Assembly (NCBI GenBank): GCA_046704805.1
Contig: JBJKRG010000248.1
Span: 20,602-84,601 of the forward strand
DNA length: 64,000 bases
Direction of reading: 5' to 3'
Origin: Gemmatimonadaceae bacterium
Lineage (GTDB): Bacteria > Gemmatimonadota > Gemmatimonadetes > Gemmatimonadales > Gemmatimonadaceae
Part shown: in pieces, positions 14,134 to 43,941 of the stretch
Layout of the letters: every line of letters begins with the position of its first letter
How positions within the stretch are numbered: the stretch's first letter is position 1
Made by a program: the position numbers and the translations under genes
The notes under the pieces: generated by a model
Databases searched by the model: none
What the model was told of the DNA's origin: nothing
The model's input: only the letters and a program-made list of their open reading frames with translations

Positions 14134-14432
14134 GCACGCCGACCGATGATCACAACGAGGGACCGCCCGATCTCGCGGACCTGCGCGCCGAAATTGAGCG
14201 TATCGACCGCGACCTGATTCGTCACATCGCGCGCCGCGTCGAACTGGCGCGCCAGGTAGGCGTCGTCAAGCATGCCGCCGGCCTTCCCGCCCTCGACCCG
14301 GCTCGCGAAGCCTCCGTGATTCGCCGGGTCAGCGAGATCGCACGTGAGGAAGGTGCCCCCGAGGAAGACGTGCGGTACCTCTTCTGGCACATCATCGGCA
14401 TGTCGCGCCGAGCGCAGTTGACCGAGGAGTAG
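14130..14432 (+). CDS. Chorismate mutase (AroQ class)
   Basis: 100 aa. LADLRAEIERIDRDLIRHIARRVELARQVGVVK is a typical CM_2 helix. ATGA overlap with aroF. Confidence 0.85.
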   Translation: MSTPTDDHNEGPPDLADLRAEIERIDRDLIRHIARRVELARQVGVVKHAAGLPALDPAREASVIRRVSEIAREEGAPEEDVRYLFWHIIGMSRRAQLTEE

Positions 14433-14434
14433 CC

Positions 14435-26816: not shown

Positions 26817-26837
26817 CGGAGCGGAACGCTCCAGGCA

Positions 26838-27758
26838 GTGCGGCCGGCGAATCCGTCCGTGATGACCGCCAGGCCCCGCCGGCGCATTGCGCCGCACCGG
26901 GTGACGCTGGATCGCTCGCTCGAGGAGCTTCCGCTGTTCCGACTCAGCGATTCACCGGATGATGTGCCCCTCGTGTTCACCACGGAAGCCGGAGGACGCT
27001 GGCGCGTCCTTCCCCGTCCCGGCGATCGCCTTCCCGGAACCTTCGATCAGGACGTGTACGTCGAGATCATGCGGCGCTTCCAGGAGGCGGGCAATCCCGT
27101 CGACGGCACGCTTCTGTTCACCCTGCACGCCTTCCTTCGTTCGATGGGGCGCCGTGTGGATGGACGCACGTACGAGCTGCTGCGCGCTGCACTCTTCCGG
27201 CTGGAGCGAACCGTTCTCGAGTCCACCGGAGCCTATCGCCTGGCCGGGCGGAACGAGGCGTTCGACGGCCGTCTCACCCTGCTCACGTCCGTATCCATCG
27301 AGCGCCGCCGGGCGGTGGATCGCGATCAACTCCCCCTGTTCGACCCGGCCATGGGTGCCGAGCCCGGCGAGGTCCGGGCGATCGTCGCCCCGTTGATTCG
27401 CGAGAACCTCACGGCCCGGCACGTCGTGACGCTCTCCTTGCCCCGGTATCTGGGCCTGGCCTCGCCAGTGGCCAGGCGGTTGTATCGACTGCTCGAGCTC
27501 GCCCGGGCGGACGGGCGGCTGGTCTGGCGGGTCTCGCTGGAGCGTCTGAAGGAGCTGCTCCCCCTGATGCAGCGCTATCCTTCGCATCTGCAACGAGTTC
27601 TGCAGCCGGCTCACGAGCGGCTGCTGGAATCCGGGGTGATCCGCAGCACGGCGATCCGGCAGGAGCGGCGCCACTGGTACGTCAACTACGTCCTTGGCAG
27701 TCGGGTTCCGTCCGGGGGGCGGGACGGGGTAAACCCCGATCCGGAACGTTCCGAGTGA
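26838..27758 (+). CDS. Replication-initiator-protein-A (RepA/RPA)-like protein
   Basis: Block order LPLFRLSD..., PGTFDQDVYVEIMRRFQEA, GRTYELLRAALFRLERTVLES, LSLPRYLGLASPVARRLYRLLE, WRVSLERLKELLPL parallels plasmid RepA (PF10134-type) proteins. Judged from memory, not from a search. Confidence 0.5.
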   Translation: MRPANPSVMTARPRRRIAPHRVTLDRSLEELPLFRLSDSPDDVPLVFTTEAGGRWRVLPRPGDRLPGTFDQDVYVEIMRRFQEAGNPVDGTLLFTLHAFLRSMGRRVDGRTYELLRAALFRLERTVLESTGAYRLAGRNEAFDGRLTLLTSVSIERRRAVDRDQLPLFDPAMGAEPGEVRAIVAPLIRENLTARHVVTLSLPRYLGLASPVARRLYRLLELARADGRLVWRVSLERLKELLPLMQRYPSHLQRVLQPAHERLLESGVIRSTAIRQERRHWYVNYVLGSRVPSGGRDGVNPDPERSE

Positions 27759-27789
27759 ACGCTGAGGCCCGATCGGAGTACAACACGGC

Positions 27790-28011
27790 ATGGCTACCAA
27801 ACTGACTCACGAGATTCGACGCGAGATCACCATCGGCGACGAGGCGTTCACGATCGTCATCTCCCCACAGGGCTTGCGGTTGTCCCGCAAGCGGTTCCGC
27901 TCTGGGCGCGAGCTCACCTGGGAAGCGCTCTGGCGCCAGGGCGGCATGGAGAACGGGGACGGCGGTCGTGCCGTTGGTTCGCCCGTGCGGGGAGAGGACC
28001 AGGCGATATAG
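27790..28011 (+). CDS. Small hypothetical protein
   Basis: 73 codons following the RepA-like gene on the same strand. No motif recognised. Confidence 0.35.
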   Translation: MATKLTHEIRREITIGDEAFTIVISPQGLRLSRKRFRSGRELTWEALWRQGGMENGDGGRAVGSPVRGEDQAI

Positions 28012-28043: not shown

Positions 28044-29642
28044 ATGAGCCGCTCCCGAAAGTTCGCCGTCGCCGCTGTCGCCCTCATCATCCCGGCTGCT
28101 GTCGGAGGATTCGTCCTCCAATCACGGACGCCGGCCGCCGGCGCGTTGCTTCTCGACCAGGTGCTCTCGCTGGTCTCGGATCACTACGTGGACTCGCTGC
28201 CGCCCGGTGATGTGTATGCGAAGGCCGCCACCGGCCTCGTCCACGAGTTGAACGACCCGTACAGCCAGCTCTTCACGCCCGAGGAGATGAAGAATTTCAC
28301 CACCAATACGAGCGGGCATTACGGTGGGATCGGGATGCAGATCGAGAGCCAGAACGGGATCGTCACGGTGAGCAAGGTGTTCCCCAACACGCCGGCGGAA
28401 GCCGCTGGCGTCGTCGAGGGCGATCAGATCGTCCGGGTCGATACCCTGTCGACGCTCGGCTGGTCCCTGACGCGAACCGCCGATTATCTCACCGGCACGC
28501 CCGGTACCAAGGTGAAGGTGCAGTTCGCCCGCCCCGGGGTCGTCGAGCCCATCGTGGTCGACTTCACCCGTGCCGTGATTCATGTGCCGGCCGTCCCGTA
28601 CTACCTCATGCTGGACGGGAACATCGGGTATATCCCGCTGCAGCAGTTCAACGAAACCGCCGCGCAGGACGTGGCCGACGCCGCTCGTGCACTGCAGAAG
28701 CAGGGCGCGAAAGGGTTCATTCTCGACGAACGGGGGAATCCGGGCGGGTACGTGGACCAGGCGCTGGATCTGAGCGGCCTGTTCCTCAAGAAGGGACAGG
28801 AGATCCTCTCCGTACGCACGCGCGTCGGTCCCCCACAGGTCGACTCCGCGGACGGCACGCCGACATTCGGATCCGTCCCCCTCATCGTGCTCACCGACGG
28901 CGGCACCGCCTCCGCCGCCGAGATCGTGGCCGGCGCGCTGCAGGATCACGACCGGGCGCTGATCGTCGGGCAGACGACGTTCGGAAAGGGGCTGGTGCAA
29001 TCGGTGTACAATCTCGACGACGGGTACGCCCTCAAGCTGACGACGGGCAAGTGGTACACGCCCAGTGGCCGGTCCATCCAGCGGCCACGGAAGGTGGTCG
29101 ACGGACATTTCGTGCCGACCCCACCGGATTCGACGGAGAACCAGGAATCGAAGAAGAAACGGCCGGCGTTCCGCTCCGACGATGGACGCATTGTCTATGG
29201 CGGCGGAGGGATCACCCCCGATGTGATCGTCGCCGACGACACGCTCACGACACCGGAGCAGCGGCTGGCCCGGGCGCTCGCACCGAAGTCGCAGGTGGTG
29301 TATGTCACCCTGTACTCGTTCGCACTCGGGCTCTCGCACCATCTGTCCCGCGGCTTCAAGTACAACCCCGCCTGGCGGGGAGCCTTCATCAAGGATCTGG
29401 AGGCCAAGGGTGTGAAGATCGACCCGAAGCTCTACGCCGCCGCGCCACGGTACCTCGACCGGCTGATCACCGACCGGGTGTCACGCTTCGTCGAGGGCGA
29501 TTCCACCGCCAAGCGCCGTGAGTTGTCGCTCGATGCCCCGCTCGACAGTGCCATGCGGTTGATGGAAAGGGCCAGGACCCAACAGCAGTTGTTCGCCCTT
29601 GCCGACGCGGAGCCGCCGGCCGAGCACCGCAAGAAACCCTGA
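28044..29642 (+). CDS. S41-family C-terminal processing peptidase (PDZ + S41)
   Basis: 532 aa. GIGMQIESQNGIVTVSKVFPNTPAEAAGVVEGDQIV (PDZ), LDERGNPGGYV, TDGGTASAAEIVAGALQD and GQTTFGKGLVQ. Confidence 0.9.
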   Translation: MSRSRKFAVAAVALIIPAAVGGFVLQSRTPAAGALLLDQVLSLVSDHYVDSLPPGDVYAKAATGLVHELNDPYSQLFTPEEMKNFTTNTSGHYGGIGMQIESQNGIVTVSKVFPNTPAEAAGVVEGDQIVRVDTLSTLGWSLTRTADYLTGTPGTKVKVQFARPGVVEPIVVDFTRAVIHVPAVPYYLMLDGNIGYIPLQQFNETAAQDVADAARALQKQGAKGFILDERGNPGGYVDQALDLSGLFLKKGQEILSVRTRVGPPQVDSADGTPTFGSVPLIVLTDGGTASAAEIVAGALQDHDRALIVGQTTFGKGLVQSVYNLDDGYALKLTTGKWYTPSGRSIQRPRKVVDGHFVPTPPDSTENQESKKKRPAFRSDDGRIVYGGGGITPDVIVADDTLTTPEQRLARALAPKSQVVYVTLYSFALGLSHHLSRGFKYNPAWRGAFIKDLEAKGVKIDPKLYAAAPRYLDRLITDRVSRFVEGDSTAKRRELSLDAPLDSAMRLMERARTQQQLFALADAEPPAEHRKKP

Positions 29643-29670
29643 GATCGCGTTCCGATGAGGCCGTTCCTTT

Positions 29671-29700
29671 CCGCCGCCGTGCTCGTCCGCACGGCGGCGG
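29671..29700 (+). terminator. Hairpin after the S41 peptidase gene
   Basis: CCGCCGCCGTGC / GCACGGCGGCGG: perfect 12-bp stem, 6-nt loop. Confidence 0.55.
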
Positions 29701-30016
29701 TCGACCATGCCCATCGAAAGTCGATCCGACCGGGAGCTACCGCCGCCGGGTGTCCTCCTTCGACCTCCACACGGTGAACCCCAACGGGGGCGACCGTGAC
29801 CAGGCCACGATCTCCGCGCCGCCCATTTCACGCCGCCCTTCACACCGGGCATGGTACGCGTCATCTTCGCCCCGAACCATACGAATTCGCCTGGTCACAC
29901 ATTCGACCTGTCTATCGGACCGCCACGGCACGATGCTGGCCGAGACCGATATCTTCTTCGCGGATTGGGTCCCCTGATCCGACAAGCCGCCTTCGGGCGA
30001 GCGCCGGAGCGCCTGC

Positions 30017-30967
30017 ATGGAAAAGCGCAGCAAGATCTACGTGGCCGGGCACCGTGGACTGGTGGGCTCGGCGCTCGAACGTGAGCTCCTCCGGCTGGGC
30101 TACGACAATCTCACCCGACGTACGCGACAGCAGCTCGACCTTCGGGATCGCGCGAAGGTCACTGCGTTCTTCGCCGAGGAACGCCCGGAGTTCGTCTTCC
30201 TGGCGGCGGCTCGCGTTGGGGGAATTCTCGCGAACAACACGTACCCCGCGGATTTCATCCGGGAGAACCTCGAGGTCCAGCTCCATGTGATCGACGCGGC
30301 GCATCGCTACGGAGTCCGGAAGCTCATGTTCCTCGGAAGCGCCTGCATCTATCCGAAGCTCGCCCCACAGCCGATCCGCGAGGAGTACCTCCTGACCGGT
30401 CCGCTCGAGCCCACCAACGCGCCGTATGCCATCGCCAAGATCGCCGGCATCTCGCTCTGCCAGTCCTACAATCGACAGTACGGCACGCAGTTCATCAGTG
30501 TGATGCCCACGAACCTGTACGGACCGGGCGACACCTTCGACCTGCAGAACAGCCATGTCCTTCCGGCGCTCATGCGGCGTCTCGACGAGGGGAAGCGCAC
30601 CGGGGCGCCGCAGGTCACGATCTGGGGCTCCGGGTCCCCCCGCCGCGAATTTCTGCACGTGGACGACATGGCCCGGGCGTGCGTGCACCTCATGCTGCAC
30701 TACGATTCGTCCGAAATCATCAACGTCGGATGCGGGGAGGACATCGCGATCGGGGACCTCGCCCACAAGATCCAGCGGCTGGTCGGGTACGAGGGCATGC
30801 TGGAGTTCGATCGGTCCAAACCCGACGGCACGCCGCTCCGCAGGCTCGATATCAGCCGGCTGTTGGCAACCGGGTGGAAGCCGACCATCTCGCTGGATGC
30901 CGGTCTCGAATCCACGTACCGCTGGTACTGTGACAATCGCAGCCAATTGCGGATCGGATCCGGCTGA
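30017..30967 (+). CDS. fcl: GDP-L-fucose synthase
   Basis: 316 aa. [15 protein letters not shown] (Rossmann), [21 protein letters not shown] and YAIAKIAG are typical Fcl/WcaG motifs. Confidence 0.9.
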
Positions 30968-31133
30968 GACGCGTGCAGGAGAGGTCGTTTCGGGTCGGGC
31001 GTCGCGTTTCTTGACGTTGCCTAAGAACTGGCCACGCGTCAGGTTGTTGGCGTCGACGTGACGTGACATCTGGCCGGTCGTTGTTGCGACGCCACAACGC
31101 ATCGACACACCCCCGATTGGCCCCACCGGAACG

Positions 31134-32657
31134 ATGGTTCTTGCCGTCACGATCTTCGCGATGCTGGTTGCGCTCGTCACCACGCGGTGGCTGGCGAGGA
31201 TCGCGCCCGCCCAACGTGAGCCGAGTGTGGTCCCCATCACGTATCGTCCGGGCTCCGCGCCGCCGATTCCCCGAGTCGGCGGCGCGGCGGTCTATGTGGC
31301 CATCGTCGTGGCGCTCGGGGCGGCGGCCGCGGTCGGCGCCACCGGCATGGCTCCCATCCTGCGGCGGCCGGAACTCTACGGCGGCATCTTCGGCGGCGCG
31401 ACGCTCCTGCTCGCCGTCGGACTCGCCGACGATTTTCTCGATCTGTCGCCGGCGGTCAAGCTTCTGGCGCAGGGCATGGCCGCGATGTTCGCCGTATCCG
31501 GGGGCCTGTCGCTTCGAGTGATTCAGCTCGACCCGACATCGACGGTTCGCCTGGGGTGGATCGGGGTTCCGCTCACCGGCCTGTGGATCATCGCCGCCAC
31601 CAACACGTTCAACTTCATTGACGGCCTCGACGGGCTGGCCTCCGGCGTCGGCATCATCGGCTTCGCCGCCACGGTGGTCTCGGCGACCATCCTCGGCCAT
31701 GCCGACGTGGTGCTCCTTGGCATGGTGCTCATCGGGGCGCTGGGGGGGTTCCTCCGCCACAACGTCGCGCCGGCCAGGATCTATCTGGGTGATTCCGGCA
31801 GCCTGCTGATCGGCTATCTGCTGGCGACACTCTCGCTGATCGGCGCCACCACGGCTTCCAGCGGCGTCCTCGTCTATGTGCCGATCTTCGCCCTCGCCCT
31901 GCCATTGCTCGACGGCTGGGTCGCGGTCGCGCGCCGCTGGCTCCGGCACATGCCCGTCTGGAAGGGTGACCATCGCCACATTCATCACCGGGTGCAGGCG
32001 CTCGGATTCGGCAAGCGGCAGAGCGTGCTCCTGCTCATCGGGGCCGCCGCACTGTTCGCGCTCGTCGGCGAGTTGATGGCGTTCGCTAATCCGGCGCTCT
32101 TCTCCTCTTCGGCCGTCGTGTTCACGCTGGGCGTCACGGTGATCGGGACGTCGCTGGGCCTCGGCCGCCTGGATTATTACGAATTCGCCGCGGTCCGGAC
32201 GGCGTGGGCGCGCCGGGTCCCGGCGTGGCGCCGGTTCGTTCGGGAGGAGATCCGCCTGCGCGATGCCGAACGTGAGTTGGCGACCGCCCGCGATCTCAAC
32301 GACCTGCGGACCGGGCTGGATCGATGTGCGCTGGCGTTCGGCCTCGACCGCGTGGAGATTTCCCGTCAGCGCCCGCGCCTGCGGCGTACCTGGCACGGGC
32401 AGTACGTCGACATCCTCGTCACGGCATCCGACTCGGCAGGCAACGACGATTGGGTTCTCCGCGTCTGGTATGGTGAGTACGATTCACCCCGACCTGATCT
32501 GGTGCAGCGTGCGGCGCGGGTTCTGGCCCGCGCGTGCGGCACGTGGCTGCACGAGTACGGCCTGCTGGCCGCCCCGGCCAGGGCGCCAGTCCAGCGCCGC
32601 GCGGTCCATGAGGGACCGACTCTCCCGCGGTCGCATCGCCACCTCGTCAAGGCGTAG
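31134..32657 (+). CDS. WecA/MraY-family polyprenyl-phosphate sugar-1-phosphate transferase with about 170-aa C-terminal extension
   Basis: ADDFLDL, NTFNFIDGLDGLASG, GDSGSLLIGY and HIHHRV motifs, followed by a soluble Arg-rich C-terminal region of unknown function. Confidence 0.85.
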   Translation: MVLAVTIFAMLVALVTTRWLARIAPAQREPSVVPITYRPGSAPPIPRVGGAAVYVAIVVALGAAAAVGATGMAPILRRPELYGGIFGGATLLLAVGLADDFLDLSPAVKLLAQGMAAMFAVSGGLSLRVIQLDPTSTVRLGWIGVPLTGLWIIAATNTFNFIDGLDGLASGVGIIGFAATVVSATILGHADVVLLGMVLIGALGGFLRHNVAPARIYLGDSGSLLIGYLLATLSLIGATTASSGVLVYVPIFALALPLLDGWVAVARRWLRHMPVWKGDHRHIHHRVQALGFGKRQSVLLLIGAAALFALVGELMAFANPALFSSSAVVFTLGVTVIGTSLGLGRLDYYEFAAVRTAWARRVPAWRRFVREEIRLRDAERELATARDLNDLRTGLDRCALAFGLDRVEISRQRPRLRRTWHGQYVDILVTASDSAGNDDWVLRVWYGEYDSPRPDLVQRAARVLARACGTWLHEYGLLAAPARAPVQRRAVHEGPTLPRSHRHLVKA

Positions 32658-32663
32658 CTCACG

Positions 32664-32978
32664 ATGTGCGAGGGCGTGGCGGTGAGCACCGTCACACTCC
32701 TGTCGCGCGTCTCGGCGACGGCGGACCTGCTCGTCAGCGAACTTTCCGGGGAAATGGTGCTACTGAATCCCGGGGACGGCGTATACTATGGCTTGGATGC
32801 CGTGGGTGCCCACATCTGGCATCTGCTCGAAGTACCGTGCGACGTGGGGACGATCGTCGACGACGTCCTGGCGCACTACGAGATCGACCGGACGCGATGC
32901 GAGCATGACGTACTCACGTTTCTCCGGGAGTTGCACGCGCACGGGCTCGTGTCGGTGCTCGCGGCCGGTGCCGACTGA
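32664..32978 (+). CDS. PqqD-family protein (RiPP recognition element / lasso B1-like)
   Basis: 104 aa. VSELSGEMVLLNPGDGVYYGLDAVGAHIWHLLEVPCDVGTIVDDVLAHYEIDRTRCEHDVLTFLRELHAHGLV is a textbook PqqD fold pattern. Starts 7 nt after the WecA-like stop. Confidence 0.85.
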   Translation: MCEGVAVSTVTLLSRVSATADLLVSELSGEMVLLNPGDGVYYGLDAVGAHIWHLLEVPCDVGTIVDDVLAHYEIDRTRCEHDVLTFLRELHAHGLVSVLAAGAD

Positions 32979-33005
32979 ACGGGCCGCGAGAGGCATGAGC
33001 ACGCC

Positions 33006-34892
33006 GTGAGCGGGTTCGTCGGCCTCCTCTCCCTCGACGGGTCGGCCATCGATCCACGCGTGCTGCATCGGCTCACCGACGCCCTCGCCTACTTCGCGCC
33101 GGATGGTGCGGCAGCCCGCGCGAGTGGGCCGATCGGCCTCGGGTTTGCAGCACTCCGCACCACCCGGCCGGGTCCGGACGAACGCAACGCGCCGGCACCG
33201 ATGCCCACCTCCGACGGCCACGGCAGCTGGATCGTCGCCGACGCCATGCTCGACGACCGCGAGCAGCTGGTGCGTGACCTCGGCCTCGCCGGTGTCCGGG
33301 TCGACCCGCAGGACAGCGACGCCGACTTGCTGCTCGGCGCCTACCGGGCGTGGGGGACGCGGTGTGCGCAGCACGTCCACGGTGACTTCTCGTTCGCGCT
33401 GTGGGACACGGACCGGCGTCGGCTGCTGCTGGCACGCGATCGATTTGGCATGCGACCGCTGTACTACGGCCGTGCCGGCAGAACGCTCGTCTTCTCGAAT
33501 GCCCTCGACGTCGTCCGCGCGCACCCGCGCATGTCCTCGGACCTGGACGCCGCTGCGATCGGTGACTTCCTGCGCCTGGGCCTGAACACGGACCTCGAAA
33601 CCACCACCTTCGCCGACGTGGCCTGTGTGCCGCCCGCGCACGCGTTCGTCGTGACCGAAGATGCCACCCGGCTCGTGAGCTACTGGGAGCTGCCGGTCGG
33701 CCGACCGCTTTCCTATCGCCGGGTCGAGGAATACGCCGAGCATTTCACCGAGGTCTTCAGTGCGGCGGTCTCCGATCGCCTCCGGGGACTCGACGACGCC
33801 GTGATCATGATGAGCGGCGGCCGGGATTCGACGGCGGTGGCCGCCATGGCCCGGTCGGCCGGCCGGCCGGCGTCGACCCACCTGCACGCCGTGACGGCGG
33901 TGTACGATTACGCACTTCCCGACGAGGAACGGGTCCATGCGGCGCTCGCCGCGGCGGCGCTCGACATCCCGGTGGAGTTCGTACCGCAGGACGAGTACCG
34001 GTGGTTCGAGGACTGGGATCGCGAGGATCTGTGGCGGCCGGAGCCCGTGGAGGCGCCGCTGCTGGCCGCTGATGCCGACCTCGCCGACCGCGCGGCTGCT
34101 ACGGCTCGTGTCGGGCTCTCGGGAGACGGCGGGGATGCGGCTCTTCGCGAGCGCGAATCGCATCTGGCCCAGTTGCTGCTCTCGGGACGGTGGGTGCAGG
34201 CGGCGACCGAATCGCTCACGTACGTGCGGTGGCACCGTCGGCTTCCGCGGCCCGGATTCCGGCGGCTGCGTGCCCGGCAGCGCGGTCTGACGTCACCCAG
34301 GCCGCCGGCCCCACCATGGCTGCGCACCGACCTGATCGACCGGACCGGGCTCCGGGCTCGCTGGGCCGCGTTGGAAGCCGAGGACGGACGCCTTCCGACC
34401 GGGGTCGGGCGTCCGGAAGCCTACGCGAAGCTCCGGTCGGAGTTCTGGCCCCGCTGCTTCGAGGCGGATCACGCCGGAGCGATCGGTATTCCCCTGGTGA
34501 TGCGGCATCCGTTCTTCGACGAGCGCGTCGTCGAGTTCCTGCTTTCCCTGCCCACCGAACAGTGGGCCAACGACAAGGGGATTCTCGTGGCTGCCATGCG
34601 GGGTCGCCTTCCCGACCGCGTTCGCCTGCGCCCGAAGACGCCGCTCGTCGGCGACTGCTACGACCTGGCGTTCACGGCTGCCGGATCACCCCGGCCCGGT
34701 CGGGACGCATTCTGCGAGGAAGCCCTCGAGTACGTCGATCCCGACGCCCTGTTCACGGTGACACCGGACATGGATCCGTCGGATGCGTGGGACTGGACGC
34801 GCGCCTACAGCCTCTCGCTCTGGCTGTCGCGGCGTGCCGTCGGCCGGCGTCCGAGACGCGTCCGGGCAGAGATCGCATTCGAAGTGAGTTGA
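33006..34892 (+). CDS. Asparagine-synthetase-like adenylating enzyme (lasso cyclase-type, C protein)
   Basis: 628 aa, GTG start. N-terminal Ntn-like domain (DFSFALWDTDRRRLLLARDRFGMRPLYY) but begins MSG rather than MCG. PP-loop MMSGGRDSTAVAAMA. Confidence 0.8.
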   Translation: MSGFVGLLSLDGSAIDPRVLHRLTDALAYFAPDGAAARASGPIGLGFAALRTTRPGPDERNAPAPMPTSDGHGSWIVADAMLDDREQLVRDLGLAGVRVDPQDSDADLLLGAYRAWGTRCAQHVHGDFSFALWDTDRRRLLLARDRFGMRPLYYGRAGRTLVFSNALDVVRAHPRMSSDLDAAAIGDFLRLGLNTDLETTTFADVACVPPAHAFVVTEDATRLVSYWELPVGRPLSYRRVEEYAEHFTEVFSAAVSDRLRGLDDAVIMMSGGRDSTAVAAMARSAGRPASTHLHAVTAVYDYALPDEERVHAALAAAALDIPVEFVPQDEYRWFEDWDREDLWRPEPVEAPLLAADADLADRAAATARVGLSGDGGDAALRERESHLAQLLLSGRWVQAATESLTYVRWHRRLPRPGFRRLRARQRGLTSPRPPAPPWLRTDLIDRTGLRARWAALEAEDGRLPTGVGRPEAYAKLRSEFWPRCFEADHAGAIGIPLVMRHPFFDERVVEFLLSLPTEQWANDKGILVAAMRGRLPDRVRLRPKTPLVGDCYDLAFTAAGSPRPGRDAFCEEALEYVDPDALFTVTPDMDPSDAWDWTRAYSLSLWLSRRAVGRRPRRVRAEIAFEVS

Positions 34893-34958
34893 CGCGCCCC
34901 CACCCGTGATCCCGATCACATGGGGGCCTGCCCGATGCCATTATCGTCGACGCATATC

Positions 34959-34964
34959 TATAAT
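34959..34964 (+). promoter_or_regulatory. Consensus -10 hexamer TATAAT, 5 nt upstream of the precursor ATG
   Basis: Read directly. No SD between it and the ATG at 34970. No good -35 box seen. Confidence 0.3.
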
Positions 34965-34969
34965 CCAGC

Positions 34970-35173
34970 ATGCGGCATCCAATCGCATCGATCCCTCCGG
35001 GTTCGCCCGACGCTCTTCAACCGGTGACGCCGACGCCGTCCGCGCCATCCGACAAGCGGCCGTATGGGACGCCGATCCTCACGGCGTACGGATCGATCGC
35101 CGACCTCACGCGTCTCGTGGGGCCGCGGGGCAAGAAGGACGCGCAACGAGGGCCCCGGCGGACGGGGTTCTAG
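34970..35173 (+). CDS. Candidate lasso-peptide precursor (A peptide)
   Basis: 67 codons in the cyclase-kinase gap, with high GC3. Leader segment YGTPILTAYGSIADLTR fits YxxPxLx3Gx5Tx. Predicted core LVGPRGKKDAQRGPRRTGF has a single acidic residue, at position 9. Confidence 0.6.
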   Translation: MRHPIASIPPGSPDALQPVTPTPSAPSDKRPYGTPILTAYGSIADLTRLVGPRGKKDAQRGPRRTGF

Positions 35174-35316
35174 CTCGAAGCCATCGGCATCCGGATGGTC
35201 GATCCCGAGTCGTCGCGCGAACGGGCACTGACGACAACGGGAGCGGCGCGCAGGACCGGCCTCACCTCGCTGCACTGTCGCGACGCGGCTGCGCTGCGTA
35301 TCGTCCCGGCATCCTC

Positions 35317-36297
35317 ATGTTCTCGTTCACGTCTCGTGCATTCGGCCTCGGCATCGCGGCTGATGCTCCGGTTCCCGGCCTCGTGCCGACAGGAATCACC
35401 CATGTGGATCTGCACATTCACATGGGTCGCCTGCCTGACTCGCTCGAAACCGGAACACGACGGCTCCCGGAGATCTGGCGTTCTCCATCCGACGCGGACA
35501 CCCAGGGAGACGTGGTCACGATGCGGGCGAGCCCCGAGGGCGCCTTGCTCGTGCTCGAGTATGGTGACGGTACACGCTTCGCGTTGAGCCGACGGGGCGA
35601 TGAAGTCTGGGTGGGATGGCCCGAGGGGATTCCGGCTGCCGTGGCTGCGACATATCTCGCCGGCCCGGTGCTGGGATTTGCGCTGCGTCTTCGGGGCATC
35701 ACCTGTCTCCACGCGAGTGTGGCCGTCCTCGGCGGCCGGGCCGTGCTGTTCGTCGGGCCAGCCGGGATGGGAAAGTCCACCATCGCAGCGGCGCTCGCGC
35801 TCCGCGGGCACCGCGTGATCGCGGACGACATTGCCGCCCTCACCCACGCGCATGACGCGTGGATGGTCCAACCGGCGGTGCCCGGGCTCCGCTTGTGGGA
35901 CGATTCGGTCGAGCTGCTGCTCGGACGACGTGACGCTCTGCCGCTCATGGCACCGGGTTGGGACAAACGGCTGTTCGATCTCCAGTCGACGCCGGTGGGA
36001 TTTCATCCCGAGCATCCCGTTCCCCTCGGGCTGATCTACGTTCTCGATGACGACGGGACGGCCCCCGGTGCATCCGTCCGGCTCGGCGGGCGTGACGCAC
36101 TCATGGCGCTCGTCGCGAATACCTACGCGAACGTCCTGCTCGATGCCGATGCACGCCGGTCCGAGTTCGTGGAGGTCTCGGCGCTCGTCCGGGACGTACC
36201 GGTTCGCCGGATCACCGTGCCGCGGGACGGGCCCACTCTTGCGGCCTTCGCCGCCGTCATCGAACGCCAGGGCGACCATGACGCAGCGCGCGACTGA
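35317..36297 (+). CDS. HPr-kinase-related P-loop kinase
   Basis: Start re-picked at MFSFTSRAFG. LHASVAVLGGRAVLFVGPAGMGKSTIAAALALRGHRVIADD matches the HprK C-terminal domain (Walker A GxxGxGKS). Confidence 0.75.
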   Translation: MFSFTSRAFGLGIAADAPVPGLVPTGITHVDLHIHMGRLPDSLETGTRRLPEIWRSPSDADTQGDVVTMRASPEGALLVLEYGDGTRFALSRRGDEVWVGWPEGIPAAVAATYLAGPVLGFALRLRGITCLHASVAVLGGRAVLFVGPAGMGKSTIAAALALRGHRVIADDIAALTHAHDAWMVQPAVPGLRLWDDSVELLLGRRDALPLMAPGWDKRLFDLQSTPVGFHPEHPVPLGLIYVLDDDGTAPGASVRLGGRDALMALVANTYANVLLDADARRSEFVEVSALVRDVPVRRITVPRDGPTLAAFAAVIERQGDHDAARD

Positions 36298-37483
36298 CAG
36301 TCTGGAGGGCCTCGCCCCGTTACCTCGCCTGCTGTGCGCGTGTGCCGGCCCGCCCGACGTCGTGCCGGGCATCGGGCCGTCGACACTGTCGTTGCCGGAA
36401 CGGATCGAGTGGGCGGCGGTGCCATCCCAGTTGGTGCGGCACGGACTTCCCGTTCTCGGGGCAGCCTACCTGGCGCCGGCGTCCGATCGCATGCCCGCGT
36501 CCGTGTGGGGGGAGATCCAGGAGAATGCCCTGTTGGCACGGGCGACGGGGCTCGCCATGGCCGGAGAATTGCTTCGCGTCCTGGCGGCAGCCGCCGAGCG
36601 GGGCCTCCGCGTGCTTCCCTATAAGGGGCCCCTGCTCGCCTGGGAAGCCTACGGCGACCTTGGGGCGCGCCCCTTCGTGGATCTGGATCTGCTCTGTGCT
36701 CCCGGCGATGTCGACGCTCTGTTGGACGTGCTCCGGACGCTTGGCTACGCCGCTCTGCACCGGCTCTCGCCTGCTCGGGACGCCTGGTTCCGGCGGGTCG
36801 ACGGCGACTATCAGATGGTCCATGAAGACACGAGTACCCTGCTCGAAGTCCATACTCGGGCGCTGTCGCTCCGGCTCGCCCCCGGGCCGCCGGTCGCCGC
36901 GCTCTGGGAGCGTCGTCGGACGGTGGTCGTGTCGGGACAATCCATCACGGTGCTCGGCGCGGACGATCAGCTCTACCTGCAACTCGTTCACGGAGCCAAG
37001 CATCGATGGGAACGGCTCGAGTGGGTCGGAGCCACCGGCGCGCTGCTCCGCCGACGCCGTGGCGACGTCATGGCCCTGAAGGGCCCCGCCTATCCCGACA
37101 GCCGGGCCGTGGAGCTGGGCTGCCTGCTGGCGCACCAGCTCGTCGACGCTCCGCTCGCCCCCCGTATCGCCGGCACCGCGGAGATCGATCCCGTCGTGCA
37201 CCGTCTGGTCCTCGCGGCACGCCACCACCTCTTCGCGGAGCGGACGCCCGACGATCGCGCCGAAACGGCTGGAAAGCTCTGGTTCAACCTGCGCCTGCAG
37301 CGCGGGGTCCGCGCCCGGCTGCAGTTCCTGTATCGATGGATGGTGTGGCCCTCGCCCGAAGACTGGGCGGCGATTTCGCTCCCCGACCCCCTCTTCATCT
37401 GCTATCGCCTGCTCCGGCCGCTCCGTTTGCTGGGCCGGTATCTCGGACTGGCGGGCGCCCGCATGCGGAGCGTCGGTGGCTGA
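36278..37483 (+). CDS. Uncharacterised nucleotidyltransferase (NTP_transf_5-like)
   Basis: Start at MTQRATDSLEG (20-nt overlap with the kinase gene). LRVLPYKGPLLAWEAYGDLGARPFVDLDLLCAPGDVDALLDVLRTLGY and a C-terminal LFICYRLLRPLRLL segment. Confidence 0.7.
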   Translation: MTQRATDSLEGLAPLPRLLCACAGPPDVVPGIGPSTLSLPERIEWAAVPSQLVRHGLPVLGAAYLAPASDRMPASVWGEIQENALLARATGLAMAGELLRVLAAAAERGLRVLPYKGPLLAWEAYGDLGARPFVDLDLLCAPGDVDALLDVLRTLGYAALHRLSPARDAWFRRVDGDYQMVHEDTSTLLEVHTRALSLRLAPGPPVAALWERRRTVVVSGQSITVLGADDQLYLQLVHGAKHRWERLEWVGATGALLRRRRGDVMALKGPAYPDSRAVELGCLLAHQLVDAPLAPRIAGTAEIDPVVHRLVLAARHHLFAERTPDDRAETAGKLWFNLRLQRGVRARLQFLYRWMVWPSPEDWAAISLPDPLFICYRLLRPLRLLGRYLGLAGARMRSVGG

Positions 37484-39224
37484 GCGTTTCCTGCCCGCGC
37501 TTCGCACCCTGACGGGTCGTCTGCTGTCGGGGCAGCGGTGGCGCACGATCGGAGTGCTCGCCCTCATGATCGCGAATACCGTCGTGCAGGGAGCGACGGT
37601 GGCGCTGTTGATCCCGTTGCTGCACGCCGCCGGTGTCCCCACCGGCACGGGGGCCGTGGCGGCCGTCGACCGCGTGATCGCGGCGATGTTCCATGCGGTG
37701 GGCCTCGCACCCAGCCTCCCGGCGGTGCTGGCGCTCTTCGTGGCAGCGGCCTGGGCCCAGGCCACGCTCGAGCATCTGGAGCTTGTGGAGACCGCGTGGG
37801 TGGAGCAGGGGTTGGTGCGCGATCTGCGCGAAGCGCTGTACCGGCAGCTGTTGGCGGCACGGTGGCAGTTCTTCACTGAACGGCGCGGGTCCGACCTCAC
37901 GCATGCGGTCACCCGGGACACTGATCGGGCCGGAGCGGCGGTCGGCTACCTGCTGCGCGGAATCGCTCAATGCGGCAGCGTGGTCGTGTACGGAGCGCTC
38001 GCCATCGCGGTCTCTCCGATGGCGTCAGCGGTGGCGCTCGCCGGTGGCGCCGTCCTGGCGCTCGTGTTGCGCCAGACGTTCCGCTCCGCACACGCCACCG
38101 GGGAGGCGCTCGGCCTCGTGTCGGCCGATACGCTGGCCCTCGTGTCCCAGCACGTCGAGGCGATCAAGCTCGTGAAGAGCTACGGCGCCGAGGCGCGGGC
38201 GCTCGACGCCTTCGGCGCGATCGCCGACCAGTCCGCCCAGTCAGCGGTCGACGCGACCCGCGCACACGCCCGGGCCCATGTGGCGACCATCGCCGGCTCG
38301 GCCACCCTGCTGGGTGTCGTCGTCTTCGTCGCCCTGAGGACCCTGCATCTCGGCGCCGCCACGACGCTCGTGTTGGCATTCCTGTTCTGGCGGCTCGTGC
38401 CGCGGCTGATGGACGTCCAGCAGAGCATCCGCTTCGCGGTGCACGAGTTGCCCGGGTTTGAGGTTGTGCAGGGCCTGCTCCGGGCTTCGGACGAGGCACG
38501 GGAGACCCCCGCCGAGGCGGCAGCGGTGCCGGCGGTCGGACGGCTGGCGATCCGGAGTGGTGTGGAGTTCGACCACGTCTCCTTCGCCTACGGAGCGGCT
38601 CCGGTTCTGACCGACGCGTGCTTCGCCGTACCGGCCGGGCGAATCACGGCCTTCACCGGCCCTTCGGGGGTGGGAAAGACCACGCTGGTGGACCTCATGC
38701 TGGGGCTGCTGACGCCCTCGTCCGGCTCCATCCGCATCGACGGAGCACCGCTGAGCGCCGCCATGCTCCCACGCTGGCGGGCCGCCGTGGCCTACGTGCC
38801 GCAGGACGCCCTGCTCTTCCACGATACGATTCTCGCCAATCTGCGCTGGGCGAAGCCCGACGCCACCGTCTCTCAGGTCTGGGAAGCCCTGCGGGCCGCC
38901 GCTGCCGAGGATTTCGTCCGCGAGCTGCCTCAGGCCCTCGACACCGTGATCGGGGACCGCGGCGTTCGTCTCTCTGGCGGTGAACGCCAGCGCCTGGCCC
39001 TCGCCCGCGCGCTGCTACGCGAACCCGCACTCCTCGTCCTGGACGAGGCCACGAGCGCGGTCGACGCCGAGAGCGAAGCCCATATCCTGCAAGCCCTCGA
39101 GGCCGTGCGGGGATCGATCACGATCGTGCTCGTCAGCCACCGGGCGGAACCCGTAAGACGCGCCGATCTGGTCTACGTGTTGGAGGCCGGCACCGTCGGC
39201 CGTCAGCCCTCGGACGCCGTGTAG
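37476..39224 (+). CDS. ABC exporter, fused permease-ATPase (McjD/MsbA-type)
   Basis: 582 aa, GTG start overlapping the upstream stop (GTGGCTGA). 6-TM N-half. Walker A GPSGVGKTT, signature LSGGERQRLALARALL, Walker B LLVLDEATSAVD. Confidence 0.9.
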   Translation: MAERFLPALRTLTGRLLSGQRWRTIGVLALMIANTVVQGATVALLIPLLHAAGVPTGTGAVAAVDRVIAAMFHAVGLAPSLPAVLALFVAAAWAQATLEHLELVETAWVEQGLVRDLREALYRQLLAARWQFFTERRGSDLTHAVTRDTDRAGAAVGYLLRGIAQCGSVVVYGALAIAVSPMASAVALAGGAVLALVLRQTFRSAHATGEALGLVSADTLALVSQHVEAIKLVKSYGAEARALDAFGAIADQSAQSAVDATRAHARAHVATIAGSATLLGVVVFVALRTLHLGAATTLVLAFLFWRLVPRLMDVQQSIRFAVHELPGFEVVQGLLRASDEARETPAEAAAVPAVGRLAIRSGVEFDHVSFAYGAAPVLTDACFAVPAGRITAFTGPSGVGKTTLVDLMLGLLTPSSGSIRIDGAPLSAAMLPRWRAAVAYVPQDALLFHDTILANLRWAKPDATVSQVWEALRAAAAEDFVRELPQALDTVIGDRGVRLSGGERQRLALARALLREPALLVLDEATSAVDAESEAHILQALEAVRGSITIVLVSHRAEPVRRADLVYVLEAGTVGRQPSDAV

Positions 39225-41671
39225 CCGTACCCGTAGTAGTAGTTGCCGTAGCGCCCGTAGCGGGGGGTGCGCGCGTCGGGATCGTTGAGCACGGCCCCCA
39301 GCATCCGGCCCCCCAGATGTCCGATCTGCTCGACCGCATGGCGCGCCGCTACTCGCTCCGACTTCCCGGCGCGGACCACGAGCACGACTCCGTCCGCCTG
39401 AACACCCATCAGCGCCGCGTCCGCCGTCACAAGGACCGGTGGCGTATCGATGAGGACCACGTCGAATCGCTCCCGCAGGGTCGCGAGCAGATCGCGCATG
39501 CGCTCACCCCCCAGGAACTCCAGTGGGTTCGGAGGGAGCGTTCCAGCGGGAATGACGCTCAGCCCCGCGATTCCCGACGGGCGGACACCCTGTTCGAGGG
39601 TCGCGTTTCCGACCAGCATGTCGGTGAGTCCCGGCTCCATGCCGAGACCGAATACATCGTGGATTCGCGCACGCCGCAGATCGGCGTCGACGAGCACGAC
39701 GTGTCGGCCCTGCTGGGCGAAGGCCACGGCCAGGTTGGCGACCGTGGTCGTCTTCCCCTCGCCCGCCGAAGCACTCGTGACCACGACCACGCGCAGCCCG
39801 GGGCGTGAGGCCGAGTACATGAGGTTGGTCATCAGCTTCCGGTACGATTCGGCGCTGGCGGACCGTACGTCGTTCACCATCACCAACTCGCTGCCGACCT
39901 CGTCGCTGAGCACCCCGCGCTGCGGGACGAGTCTGGGCAGCAGGTGGTGCGCGGTGCCGCGCAGGCGGCTCGGCCACCCCTGTCTCTGATCGCCGGCGAT
40001 CTGCGGGATCAGGCCCAGCCCGGGTACGCGCATGACCGATTCCAGGTCTTCCCACCGCCGTACGCTGCTGTTCAGCCGGTCGGTGACCACGGTGAGACCG
40101 ATGCCGAGCAGCAACCCGAGGAACGCTCCATACGTCAGCTTCCGCTTTCGCCCGGCGCCGATCGAGGCGCTCGGAAATTGCGCCAGGTCGACGATCTGGA
40201 CCTGCCCCGTCTCCACGGCTTCCGAGATCTTCGCGACCTGCAACTCGTCATTGAGCTTGTCCGACATCTTCAGGATGTTGTCGGCATCTCGCTGCAACCG
40301 CTGCTCCGTCTCCTCCACGCCCGGGATTGCGGCGATCTCCTGGGTGCGATGCGCCCGCAGGCTGTCGACGGCTGCGATCTCGCCTTCCACATTGGCGAGC
40401 TGATTCTGGACAGCCGTGCGTAGCTGCGGCTCGGTCGCCGTGATCAGCGCATCCACGCGCTCCACGGCCGGGTGCTTGGCGGTCCGGGCGAACAGACCCG
40501 TCGTCAGGGAGTCACGCGTGTGCTCGTACTGGGCGAGCTCGGTGTACAGCATGTTGATCGACGCGTTGCCCGCCGGATTGACCACGAACGCCATCGTACG
40601 CAGAGCCGTGGAATCTCCCTGCTCGTAGCGCCGTAGCTCGCCGAGCAGGGACTGGTAGGTTGCGCGCGACTCGTGCAGGGTCTGCGCCTGTGTGTTGAGG
40701 GCCGCCAGGTCCGCCTGCTCGGCGTTGTACTTGTCCTGCGCGCTGAGGGCGAGCGTGCGGCGACGGTACGCGGCGAGTTTGGCCTGGGCGATCGCCAGCA
40801 GCGAGTCGGTCGTCGTGAGCTGGCTCTCGATGAAGATGCGCCGTCGGTGGGACTGCTGCCGCGCCGCTTCGGCATTCTCTGCCTTGAACACCTCGGCGAC
40901 TTCGCTGGCCACCGCCTGGGCCGTGTAGGGGTCGTCGCAGGTGTACGTGATGTCGATCACCGAGGTCATATCCCGCGGCTTCGCCGTGAGGCTGGCCAGC
41001 AGCCCGTCGGCCGCCACGTCCTGCGACACGACGTCGAGCACTGCCGTCGCGACCCTCGGACTGGCGCGCACCGTGAAGGTCACCCCGCCCGTCGTGACCG
41101 GCGTTCCATAGTCGCCGATGATCGAGTCCCGCTCGCTGTACACCACGAAGTGCGACGGGGCGAATCGCAGGTTCAGTGTGGTCGTCGCCGCATCGAGCGC
41201 GACATGAACGTGCTCCAGCGCCCCCACGTGGAAGTCGGGCGTGCGGCTCTGCAGCCGGAGGCCCAGCGAATCCACCACCCGGTCGGCAATGATCCGGCTC
41301 TTGATCACCTGCACCTGGGTAAGGATCGGGTCGGTGTAGCCACCGAATCCGCCGTTGTAGTCCGGCACCAGGTTCCCGCTCATCGCGGCGCCCTGATCGG
41401 TCAGGCGAACCGCGCTCGCAGCACGATAGAGCGGAAGGTCGTCCCGCACCCGGTACCACTGATACCCGATCGCTCCGGCGGTCGTGAGGAGGATGATCCA
41501 CCAGTAGCGCCGGATGATGGAGAGATACTGGCGCAGCGGATTCGGCTCGGCGTTGGACGAGTCGGTGCCGAATCCCTGGTAGTTCCCCCCGCCCGGCGGA
41601 TAGGGGATCGCGGGGAGGCTGCTGCCCTCCCGGGGACGGCTTACGCCCATGGACGGTTTATGCTCCGACAC
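39203..41671 (-). CDS. Polysaccharide co-polymerase / tyrosine autokinase (Wzc/GumC-type)
   Basis: 822 aa. Wzz-like N-domain with coiled coil, P-loop VTSASAGEGKTT, Walker B VLIDTPPV, and a Tyr-rich tail YGRYGNYYYGYGY. GTG start preceded by GGAGGA. Confidence 0.9.
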   Translation of the reverse strand: MSEHKPSMGVSRPREGSSLPAIPYPPGGGNYQGFGTDSSNAEPNPLRQYLSIIRRYWWIILLTTAGAIGYQWYRVRDDLPLYRAASAVRLTDQGAAMSGNLVPDYNGGFGGYTDPILTQVQVIKSRIIADRVVDSLGLRLQSRTPDFHVGALEHVHVALDAATTTLNLRFAPSHFVVYSERDSIIGDYGTPVTTGGVTFTVRASPRVATAVLDVVSQDVAADGLLASLTAKPRDMTSVIDITYTCDDPYTAQAVASEVAEVFKAENAEAARQQSHRRRIFIESQLTTTDSLLAIAQAKLAAYRRRTLALSAQDKYNAEQADLAALNTQAQTLHESRATYQSLLGELRRYEQGDSTALRTMAFVVNPAGNASINMLYTELAQYEHTRDSLTTGLFARTAKHPAVERVDALITATEPQLRTAVQNQLANVEGEIAAVDSLRAHRTQEIAAIPGVEETEQRLQRDADNILKMSDKLNDELQVAKISEAVETGQVQIVDLAQFPSASIGAGRKRKLTYGAFLGLLLGIGLTVVTDRLNSSVRRWEDLESVMRVPGLGLIPQIAGDQRQGWPSRLRGTAHHLLPRLVPQRGVLSDEVGSELVMVNDVRSASAESYRKLMTNLMYSASRPGLRVVVVTSASAGEGKTTTVANLAVAFAQQGRHVVLVDADLRRARIHDVFGLGMEPGLTDMLVGNATLEQGVRPSGIAGLSVIPAGTLPPNPLEFLGGERMRDLLATLRERFDVVLIDTPPVLVTADAALMGVQADGVVLVVRAGKSERVAARHAVEQIGHLGGRMLGAVLNDPDARTPRYGRYGNYYYGYGYTASEG

Positions 41672-42818: not shown

Positions 42819-43941
42819 ACAACTGCGCCATGCGCTCGGCGTATGCCTCCCACGTGAATCTCGCCGCCCGGACCGCCGCCGCCTGCCGTCGACGTTCCCA
42901 CGCCTCCGGCGACGTCGCACGCTCGGTCAGCAGTTCCCCGATCATTCGGACCCAATGCTCGACGTCGCCCGCCGGAGCATATGTGATGGACGATCCACCC
43001 ACCTCTCGCAGCACAGGCAGGTCGCTGGCGACGACCGGGGTTCCGCAGGCCATCGCTTCCACGACCGGCAGACCGAATCCCTCCGCGGCCGAGGGCAACA
43101 GGACCAGGGCCGCGTCCCGGTAGAGCCCCGCCAGCTCGGCGTGGCTCACCGGTGGCATGACCCGGATCGCGTCCTCGACGCCTAGTGTTCGGGCCAGCGC
43201 CGTCTGCGCCGGCGTGAACGCTCCGCCCACGCGGACGAGGCGCATCGTCGGCGCGTGCTCCCGTACCCGGGCGAGCACGTTCAACAGCACGTCGATTCGC
43301 TTGCGCGCGATGGTGCTGCCCACGTGGAGCAGCGTCACCGGGCCGTCGGCGATCTCTCGCGTTGCGGGGGTACCGCGCGTGAATGCGGGATGCACGCCCA
43401 GCGGCACGACTTCCAGGCGCTCCGTGCGCAGGCCGTGCGTCACGAGCGCTTCCCGGGTCGCTTCGCTGTCGCAGGCCACGATCGCCGCCGCGCGAACTCC
43501 GGCCAGGAGGCGCTCGGTCATCCGGCGAAACGCGGCCGATCTGGGCTCGTTTGCGGGGTCGAACAGGGAACGGAACGCGTCCACGTCATGGCAGGTGACC
43601 ACGGTATGCTCGGCCGGCAGCTCGCGTACGAGATGGGCGTACGTGTGGTCAACGACGTGGTAGGCTCCGTATGTCCCGCGGTGCCGGCGCAGCCATCGTG
43701 GATATCGCCGATGCCGATCGAGATACCGGTTGGCGTTCACGAGGGCCCGGACGTGGGCCGCGCGGGCCAGCGTTGCCGGCCACCGCGGCATCGTCGGCCG
43801 CAGACGCGCAGGCTGCACCGGCGGCGCGGCCACGCCGGGCAGGGTGCGCACGAGTTGATCGGCCACGAGATCCATGCTCGGCCACCGCTCCTCGAGCAGG
43901 TCGCACACGATGCCGACCGGAATCGGCGCGCTCGGAGTCAT
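42796..43941 (-). CDS. Glycosyltransferase family 4
   Basis: Start MTPSAPIPVGIV (ATGA overlap at 43938-43941). LPSAAEGFGLPVVEAMACGTPVV EX7E motif. Confidence 0.8.
   Translation of the reverse strand: MTPSAPIPVGIVCDLLEERWPSMDLVADQLVRTLPGVAAPPVQPARLRPTMPRWPATLARAAHVRALVNANRYLDRHRRYPRWLRRHRGTYGAYHVVDHTYAHLVRELPAEHTVVTCHDVDAFRSLFDPANEPRSAAFRRMTERLLAGVRAAAIVACDSEATREALVTHGLRTERLEVVPLGVHPAFTRGTPATREIADGPVTLLHVGSTIARKRIDVLLNVLARVREHAPTMRLVRVGGAFTPAQTALARTLGVEDAIRVMPPVSHAELAGLYRDAALVLLPSAAEGFGLPVVEAMACGTPVVASDLPVLREVGGSSITYAPAGDVEHWVRMIGELLTERATSPEAWERRRQAAAVRAARFTWEAYAERMAQLYAEVARG

Follow-up and report, generated by a model that had tools for sequence, protein, structure and literature searches.

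A 64-kb stretch of the Gemmatimonadaceae contig JBJKRG010000248.1, referred to here as the window (~68% G+C across its length), carries eight plus-strand genes that run in one direction from 30017 to 39224. The last six of these (32664–39224) probably form a B1-C-A-K-N-D cluster whose product would be a class-II lasso peptide, cationic and belonging to the phosphorylated family of paeninodin, pseudomycoidin and the Bsf peptide. This is the layout of phosphorylated-lasso clusters (PMC9266682) minus one gene, the leader peptidase B2. Tailoring of lasso peptides by such kinases and NTP transferases has been shown by experiment (PMC6993621, PMC9266682, PMC10368454). The locus is worth following on two counts, namely a B2-less state that is clade-wide and under purifying selection, and an association with exopolysaccharide (EPS) genes that spans phyla.

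Enzymes and precursor peptide of the cluster

The original prediction, made from the DNA letters alone, had described eight co-oriented and tightly packed genes and assigned part of them to a lasso-type module for a peptide that is made by the ribosome and modified after translation (RiPP). The coordinates, the junctions and the small open reading frame (ORF) of 67 aa were confirmed from the sequence, using an ORF listing and third-position GC profiles, and the lasso identity of B1, C, A, K, N and D was borne out by hidden Markov model (HMM) and PDB evidence. B1 (32664–32978, +), a PqqD-family RiPP recognition element (RRE), scored 75.4 bits with NF033536 lasso_PqqD_Bac (cutoff 80) and 74.3 bits with PF05402; its closest sequence matches in the PDB are the lasso B1 chaperones 9x90_B and TbiB1 (5v1u). 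C (33006–34892, +) is an asparagine-synthetase-like lasso macrolactam (isopeptide) cyclase, for which the best NCBIfam model is NF033535 lass_lactam_cya (296.5 bits, E = 4.5e-88; curated cutoff 525). The XrtA/PEP-CTERM amidotransferase model TIGR03108 reached 149 bits (cutoff 816.9), half of the lasso cyclase score. The N-terminus of C, VSGFVG, is devoid of the Cys2 glutamine nucleophile, and an ATP PP-loop (SGGRDS) is present at residue 270. The AsnB-like ORF is thus placed with lasso cyclases rather than with the EPS-type enzymes that the original prediction had named as the other possible outcome.

K (35317–36297, +) is an HprK-like peptide kinase (PF07475, 31.9 bits; TIGR04352, 40.4 bits). 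Its start was set at ATG 35317, in agreement with all homologues, the mechanical ORF beginning at 34906. The motif H132-G147-G150-G152-K153-S154-D170-D171 has a spacing identical to that of BsfK from Bradymonas sediminis, of which residues H148…D186-D187 were shown to be catalytic (PMC10368454). With this BsfK-like motif and its pairing with an NTP transferase, the protein fits the role foreseen for it, a tailoring kinase of phosphorylated lasso peptides. The partner, N (36278–37483, +), is an NTP_transf_5 protein (PF14907, 120.8 bits) that gave no match in NCBIfam and none in the PDB sequence search. Its V-D135-L-D137 motif recalls PsmN, in which D134 and D136 are required for the addition of hexose to phosphoserine in pseudomycoidin (PMC6993621), and N is by analogy a PsmN-like candidate for attaching hexose to phosphate. 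D (37476–39224, +) is an MsbA/HepA-like ABC exporter with fused permease and ATPase (PF00664 and PF00005), in which no C39 peptidase domain was found with Pfam; its homologues also occur in lasso clusters without nearby EPS genes, e.g. L017. Gaps of 27, 77 and 143 nt separate B1 from C, C from the precursor gene A and A from K, respectively, while K and N overlap by 20 nt and N and D by 8 nt, as originally described.

The precursor gene A (34970–35173, +; 67 codons) scored 32.4 bits with the NCBIfam lasso precursor model NF033528 lasso_cyano (cutoff 33). The leader ends at R48, with the RRE motif Y32-G-T-P-I-L..G41..T47-R48 at 35063–35113; the leader sequence YGTPILTAYGSIADLTR, preceded by KRP, fits the lasso pattern YxxPxLx3Gx5Tx with Thr at position −2. 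The core L49–F67 (LVGPRGKKDAQRGPRRTGF; 35114–35170) comprises 19 residues, among them six basic ones, Asp9 as the sole acidic residue and Thr17 as the sole hydroxyl residue. It ends in RRTGF, which places Phe last and Thr17 at −3. Another in-frame start, GTG 35024, would yield a 49-aa precursor. A precursor homologue sits between cyclase and kinase in ~70 related loci, where the leader motif, an Asp at position 8–10 and a near-C-terminal [KR]-T followed by 0–3 residues recur. The lasso motif and core are kept in L001–L004, L012 and ~60 loci further away. With these homologues and the NF033528 match, the 67-aa ORF is no chance ORF.

Searching with the kinase recovered the protein of the window itself and relatives of gradually falling identity; the kinase is also present on a 28-kb Logan contig, and an exact look-up of the cyclase in public assemblies gave no record. 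Four loci, L001–L004, come from metagenome-assembled genomes (MAGs) of Gemmatimonadaceae found in a one-genome-per-species scan and show ~70% cyclase identity. The gene order of this clade is RPA, S41 peptidase, (Tricorn-like), (fcl), WecA-like, B1, C, [A], K, N, D and convergent Wzc with glycosyltransferases. It holds in L001–L004, L009–L014 and L096, down to ~50% kinase identity, and never includes B2. All six cluster genes are intact in the window, L001–L004 and L012. Ratios of nonsynonymous to synonymous substitution (dN/dS) between the window and L001–L004/L012 range from 0.15 to 0.44 for WecA, B1, C, K, N and D, values that are rough because synonymous sites are near saturation; the enzymes are under purifying selection. 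Clade precursors share the leader motif and Asp9 and carry (R/K)-T-G-(F/Y) at the C-terminus, as in TVGRRRRRDARRGRRRTGY from L012, and the leader motif, Asp9 and Thr(−3) are invariant wherever a precursor is recognisable (window/L005, L001–L004, L012/L014). The small ORF and its EPS linkage are therefore conserved in syntenic relatives, as the original prediction would have it. Distant relatives (33–45% kinase identity; L006, L008 and 80 soil-metagenome loci) mainly have the order B1-B2-C-A-K, with a PrmA-like methyltransferase and N optional, and have KKP-YxxPxLxxYGxxxxLTx in common in their precursors.

Among characterised systems, the pseudomycoidin (psm, Bacillus pseudomycoides) and paeninodin-type clusters are likewise split-B clusters in which an HprK-like K is accompanied by an NTP transferase (N), as yet uncharacterised, and by an ABC pump (D) (PMC6993621, PMC9266682). 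They belong to a different phylum from the diderm Gemmatimonadota, and the comparison is one of gene content and motifs. The ring closes at residue 9 in both, at Glu9 in pseudomycoidin and, as predicted, at Asp9 in the window, and the DxD motifs of N are almost co-located (134/136 in PsmN, 135/137 here). In contrast to the window, the psm cluster encodes B2, paeninodin-type leaders read WxxP instead of YxxP, and the acceptor in both is a C-terminal Ser, whereas the core described here ends in Phe and has Thr17 at −3 as its only hydroxyl residue. The Bsf cluster is of the Gram-negative B1-B2-C-A-K-N-D type and shares the YxxPxL leader motif in addition to the kinase motif (PMC10368454). It differs in the presence of B2, in Ile instead of Thr at leader position −2 and in the phosphorylation of core Ser3 by BsfK, the window core being without Ser or Thr near its N-terminus.

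On this basis, the following pathway may be proposed. The precursor would be made, possibly from a promoter of its own, and its leader bound by the PqqD-type RRE via Y32xxPxL. The HprK-like kinase would then phosphorylate the core, most likely at Thr17, since this is the sole hydroxyl residue of the core and a near-C-terminal [KR]-T is found family-wide. Known phosphorylation sites are the C-terminal Ser (paeninodin, pseudomycoidin; PMC6993621, PMC9266682) and Ser3 (Bsf; PMC10368454), and B1 has been reported to assist the kinase in the latter system (PMC10368454). The leader would be cut off after Thr47-Arg48, whereupon the AsnB-like cyclase, with ATP, would activate Asp9 and join it to the new Leu1 amine, giving a ring of 9 residues with a tail of 10. 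The NTP_transf_5 protein may place a hexose on the phosphate, a role like that of PsmN in pseudomycoidin, and the ABC pump would export the product. The calculated neutral monoisotopic masses are 2077.18 Da for the lasso core, 2157.14 Da with HPO3 and 2319.20 Da with HPO3 and hexose. Phosphorylation at Thr17 and hexosylation by N are proposed with less confidence than the cluster assignment itself. The genes and their motifs, their conservation, the lack of B2 and the recurring EPS linkage are observed, whereas the phosphorylation site, hexosylation, threading, co-transcription and a functional tie to EPS are inferred.

Additional genes accompany the modification enzymes in some relatives. L003 has a gene for a PRMT-like (protein arginine methyltransferase-type) protein between kinase and N (13362–14558; PF22528, PF06325), and a PrmA-like methyltransferase gene lies 3' of the kinase in 8 of the 15 well-flanked distant relatives. 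As the cores are rich in Arg and Lys, the peptides of this lasso family may be N-methylated as a further modification. A divergent pair of ABC-2 permease and ATPase genes directly 5' of B1, often with a DegT aminotransferase gene, was seen in many distant relatives (L006, L047, L078, L049, L045, L051 and L064); Acidobacteriia lasso clusters cloned from soil have a similar DegT neighbour (PMC9064862). Precursors of two kinase lineages treated below, in which B1 and B2 are not detectable, retain the YxxPxL RRE motif.

Absence of the B2 leader peptidase

B2 is a core lasso enzyme, and its absence is one of several observations that weigh against the cluster assignment. No B2 (PF13471, Transglut_core3) was found in the ~55 window ORFs scanned with Pfam across the 64 kb, and a custom B2 HMM built from 30 relatives and run on all six-frame ORFs with 45 aa or more had no match in the window or the clade loci. 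The matches of B1, C and A to the NCBIfam lasso models, as given above, all lie under the curated cutoffs. The core ends in Phe and is without the C-terminal Ser used by paeninodin-type kinases, so the phosphorylation site is a guess, and the homology of N and PsmN comes via Pfam PF14907 and the literature. Within the clade, no in-frame precursor could be recognised in L009–L011 (9700–10100), where the cyclase call is also shortened, and the exporter of L096 (16715–17486) is broken up into called fragments of 43 and 91 aa; both are signs of decay or of assembly error, and the L009–L011 type sequence recurs in 11 contigs.

The established lasso logic invoked in the original prediction is incomplete here: RRE, cyclase, peptide and exporter are present, and the missing B2 had passed unnoticed. 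Of the 15 distant relatives flanked by 4.5 kb or more to either side, 14 have B1 and B2, the remaining one, L039, having neither. In the sampled loci, the presence of B1 combined with the absence of B2 is confined to the clade of the window. The lengths of cyclase, kinase and N equal those in B2-carrying relatives, which speaks against a protease fused into any of the three. Two other candidates were considered and rejected. The C-terminal extension of the WecA-like protein encoded upstream of B1 could have hidden a protease; it has no Pfam match and is also present in lasso-free EPS loci. The S41 peptidase encoded upstream is a weak candidate as well, being syntenic only inside the clade and apparently secreted. 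No SpI-type (S26) signal peptidase was found among the window ORFs scanned with Pfam. For a cluster without B2, leader cleavage must be the work of a B2 gene outside the sequenced stretch or of a different protease, which could be a housekeeping enzyme, as seen with pseudomycoidin in E. coli and B. subtilis (PMC6993621).

Comparable cases are known. Pseudomycoidin was made without B1 and B2 in both E. coli and B. subtilis (PMC6993621), and the B-less cluster of Stanieria cyanosphaera PCC 7437 consists of cyclase, precursor and PsmK-like kinase without a leader peptidase (PMC6993621). The latter is likened to the window by description only and, unlike it, also lacks B1 and has a recognisable glycosyltransferase; the best NCBIfam cyclase and precursor models of the window carry 'cya' and 'cyano' in their names (NF033535, NF033528). 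Loss of B2 throughout a clade that has kept B1 is natural evidence that lasso maturation can dispense with a dedicated peptidase, which had previously been seen only in heterologous hosts. Genome-mining rules that demand B2 will overlook such clusters.

In two further kinase lineages (L039, L024, L020, L058, L071), neither B1 nor B2 was detectable beside the cyclase, within flanks of 9–10 kb on both sides in L039 and shorter ones in the others. In the four of these loci that have upstream sequence (L039, L058, L024, L020), a divergent TPR-WzyC-Wza-Wzc block lies directly 5' of the cyclase gene.

Association with exopolysaccharide genes and alternative explanations

The cluster is framed by EPS genes. 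Upstream lies the gene for a WecA/MraY-family polyprenyl-phosphate sugar-1-phosphate transferase of 507 aa (31134–32657, +; PF00953 (Glycos_transf_4), 122.7 bits; TIGR02380, 115 bits), whose TAG stop codon is separated from the ATG of the B1 (pqqD) gene by 6 nt as read from the sequence. This wecA-B1 junction measures 6–21 nt across the clade. At the other end, the ABC exporter gene and the convergent gene for the Wzc tyrosine autokinase/co-polymerase (39203–41671, −; TIGR01007, 188.6 bits) overlap at their 3' ends by 22 nt (39203–39224), which leaves no space for terminators between the two transcription units. The overlap spans 22–28 nt in the clade loci checked, e.g. 28 nt in L009 (14087–14114) and 22 nt in L012 (13876–13897). 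Wzc is the first product of a minus-strand operon that extends from 39203 to ~60684 and also encodes seven glycosyltransferases, a Wzy_C protein and Wza. Both the 3' overlap and this convergent Wzc/Wzy/Wza operon had been recognised in the original prediction.

Two genes upstream of B1, which the original prediction had placed in an apparent operon with the module, are EPS genes. The fcl gene (30017–30967, +), encoding GDP-L-fucose synthase (NF047922, 474.5 bits), is present in L002, L003, L009 and L096, was not found in L001 and L004 by tblastn or in their gene calls, and is in conflict in L012, where no epimerase gene is called yet phmmer detects an fcl-like ORF. It is an EPS sugar-nucleotide gene and a variable neighbour outside the peptide module, not a fixed member of it. 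The sugar-priming gene has a conserved short junction with B1, and its homologues also occur in lasso-free EPS loci. Orthologues in the clade show 58–71% identity, followed by an abrupt fall to ≤40%. Homologues of similar length with 37–38% identity are found in the lasso-free EPS loci L095 (Gemmatimonadota MAG) and L097 (Bryobacteraceae MAG). To judge from these homologues, the WecA-like protein is an ordinary EPS priming enzyme and not lasso-specific. In the simplest account, a B1-C-A-K-N-D cassette came to have an EPS priming gene on one side and the Wzc operon on the other. The extension of the WecA-like protein (residues ~340–507) comprises ~170 aa; its lasso-free homologues have 493–547 aa, with 82–98% of the query aligned.

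The linkage recurs outside the clade. Of 28 loci outside the clade that have flanks of 9 kb or more, 10 carry Wzy_C, Wza or Wzc next to the lasso genes and 8 carry all three, a count that has no matched random-locus control, so that enrichment is argued and not measured. Typical orders are K-(methyltransferase)-(N)-OMP-TPR-WzyC-Wza-Wzc-epimerase or a divergent TPR-WzyC-Wza-Wzc block 5' of C, and by a rough kinase tree the EPS-linked loci span at least three further kinase lineages. In Bacilli, Popov et al. 2026 found biosynthetic gene clusters (BGCs) for phosphorylated lasso peptides inside capsular polysaccharide loci, a frequent co-localisation for which they suggested a role in biofilms (PMC13381572). 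These clusters, with lasso or linear polyphosphorylated peptide (LPP) products, combine RRE, HprK-like kinase, NTP transferase and MsbA-like pump beside polysaccharide genes, as is the case here. They differ from the window in belonging to the Bacillota, while the window locus is of the diderm Wzy/Wza/Wzc type and starts 6 nt from a priming transferase gene; the LPP clusters have no cyclase and have an SpI-type leader peptidase, whereas the window has a cyclase and neither SpI nor B2 was found. Because of this precedent, the context is less unusual than it had first appeared. The EPS association is a known pattern, here extended to diderm soil phyla.

Of the phosphorylated lasso peptides, neither paeninodin nor pseudomycoidin showed antibacterial activity (PMC6993621). 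A cassette that is joined to an EPS priming gene and under purifying selection throughout a clade offers a concrete system for studying a link to polysaccharides or biofilms, and comparable gene surroundings in Bacilli and further soil lineages add weight to such a link. With 5,479 representative clusters (50% identity) retrieved by the kinase-family profile at E ≤ 1e-30, the question touches many soil bacteria. One may speculate that such lasso peptides, instead of being antibiotics in their own right, serve as accessories in Wzy-dependent polysaccharide export. The cassette would then be part of the Gemmatimonadaceae EPS priming operon and mature without a dedicated B2, and the cationic peptide, phosphorylated at Thr17 and hexosylated, with donors possibly from the same locus, would leave the cell together with the polymer, which it could bind, cap or regulate. 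We regard this idea as rather unlikely; if true, the fact that Bacilli and Acidobacteria-like soil contigs show the coupling too would suggest an envelope or biofilm role that is old and general. Its counterpart, which competes with functional coupling only, is that the clade ancestor acquired a mobile lasso cluster between wecA and wzc and passed it on vertically, the peptide acting independently, e.g. as an antimicrobial or a signal. This has a substantial chance of being correct, somewhat short of even. Vertical descent can by itself account for synteny inside one clade, the WecA-like gene type is also found in EPS loci without lasso genes, L008, L017, L045, L050, L051 and L064 have lasso clusters without EPS genes within 9–10 kb, and patchy BGC distributions driven by horizontal gene transfer were described by Popov et al. 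(PMC13381572). It has to contend, however, with the 10 of 28 non-clade loci, with the spread of the linkage over three or more additional kinase lineages in differing arrangements (co-directional downstream or divergent upstream), with the same association in Bacilli (PMC13381572) and with the conserved wecA-B1 junction and ABC/wzc overlap.

The remaining alternatives bear on the lasso cluster itself. Loss of B2 might have inactivated the pathway, with the remainder heading towards pseudogenes, as the B2-less state of the whole clade, the missing precursor and shortened cyclase call of L009–L011 and the exporter fragments of L096 would suggest. We consider such a relic unlikely, since six intact genes in the window, L001–L004 and L012, the low dN/dS across a divergence down to ~50% kinase identity, the invariance of Asp9, Thr(−3) and the leader motif in recognisable clade precursors and the production of pseudomycoidin without B1/B2 in E. 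coli and B. subtilis (PMC6993621) all argue against it. Slightly harder still to credit is a linear phosphorylated or glycosylated, LPP-like peptide with no threaded lasso, the AsnB-like protein having some other role. RRE, HprK-like kinase, NTP transferase and MsbA-like transporter do constitute the LPP core (PMC13381572), B2 is missing, and unmodified pseudomycoidin is no threaded lasso (PMC6993621). A linear product would nevertheless leave a full-length cyclase with an intact PP-loop, conserved at ~70% identity, and an invariant Asp9 to be explained, besides the leader Thr at −2, the match to a lasso precursor model and the lack of an SpI-type (S26) peptidase among the window ORFs scanned. 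Very improbable, finally, is membership of the HPr-rel-A system or of an EPS-type asparagine-synthase/amidotransferase pathway. The HPr-rel-A system, to which the original prediction had tentatively linked these ORFs, does exist in NCBIfam, with models TIGR04352 (HprK-related kinase A), TIGR04353 (HPr-rel-A system PqqD family peptide chaperone) and TIGR04355 (kinase B), and it likewise combines an HprK-related kinase with a PqqD-family chaperone. The locus is EPS-associated, and the kinase is weakly similar to TIGR04352 (E = 1.8e-10), but its 40.4 bits stand against a cutoff of 200, distant relatives reach 30–37 bits, the window PqqD has no TIGR04353 match at E ≤ 0.01 (cutoff 35 bits; relative L049, 24.3 bits) and N has no match to any NCBIfam model. 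The amidotransferase pathway is opposed by the TIGR03108 score, which is below both its own cutoff and the lasso cyclase score. The window ORFs are thus not members, and the proposal that the locus supplies a candidate substrate for this orphan system falls with the failed membership. A literature search on 'HprK-related kinase' found no paper.

Expression signals and flanking genes

A sigma-70-like promoter candidate (34935–34964, +; ATGCCA-18 nt-TATAAT, 10/12 consensus matches) ends 5 nt ahead of the precursor ATG; two such sites occur in 9.9 kb, compared with 0.6 expected. If this predicted promoter is used, the precursor transcript may be leaderless. Its position is not conserved, L003 having a TTGACC…TAGAAT pair 5' of the precursor, followed by GGAGG and ATG. 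The terminator scan gave counts at chance level with none at a gene junction, the 143-nt spacer between peptide and kinase folded no better than shuffled sequence (z = 0.68), and an Rfam scan of 29000–40000 gave no credible match. The 6-nt junction and the lack of a predicted terminator suggest read-through from wecA, by which peptide and polysaccharide would be made together. Co-transcription with wecA, read from the 6–21 nt junctions across the clade, is held with less confidence than the lasso cluster assignment.

The genes 5' of fcl are housekeeping genes (S41 peptidase, RPA-like protein, menaquinone gene, glutamine synthetases), from which it follows that the plus-strand arm of the EPS locus consists of fcl and wecA only. 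An odd neighbour among them is the RPA-like 'replication initiator protein A' gene (PF10134) which, together with a 73-codon ORF, occupies 26817–28011 just 5' of the S41 peptidase gene. The pair is found at the same chromosomal position in all clade loci, often behind MerR and SDR genes. Within the minus-strand EPS operon, an ORF of 314 aa with no Pfam match lies on the plus strand (43255–44199) and is shared with L001, L002 and L004 at 48–52% identity.

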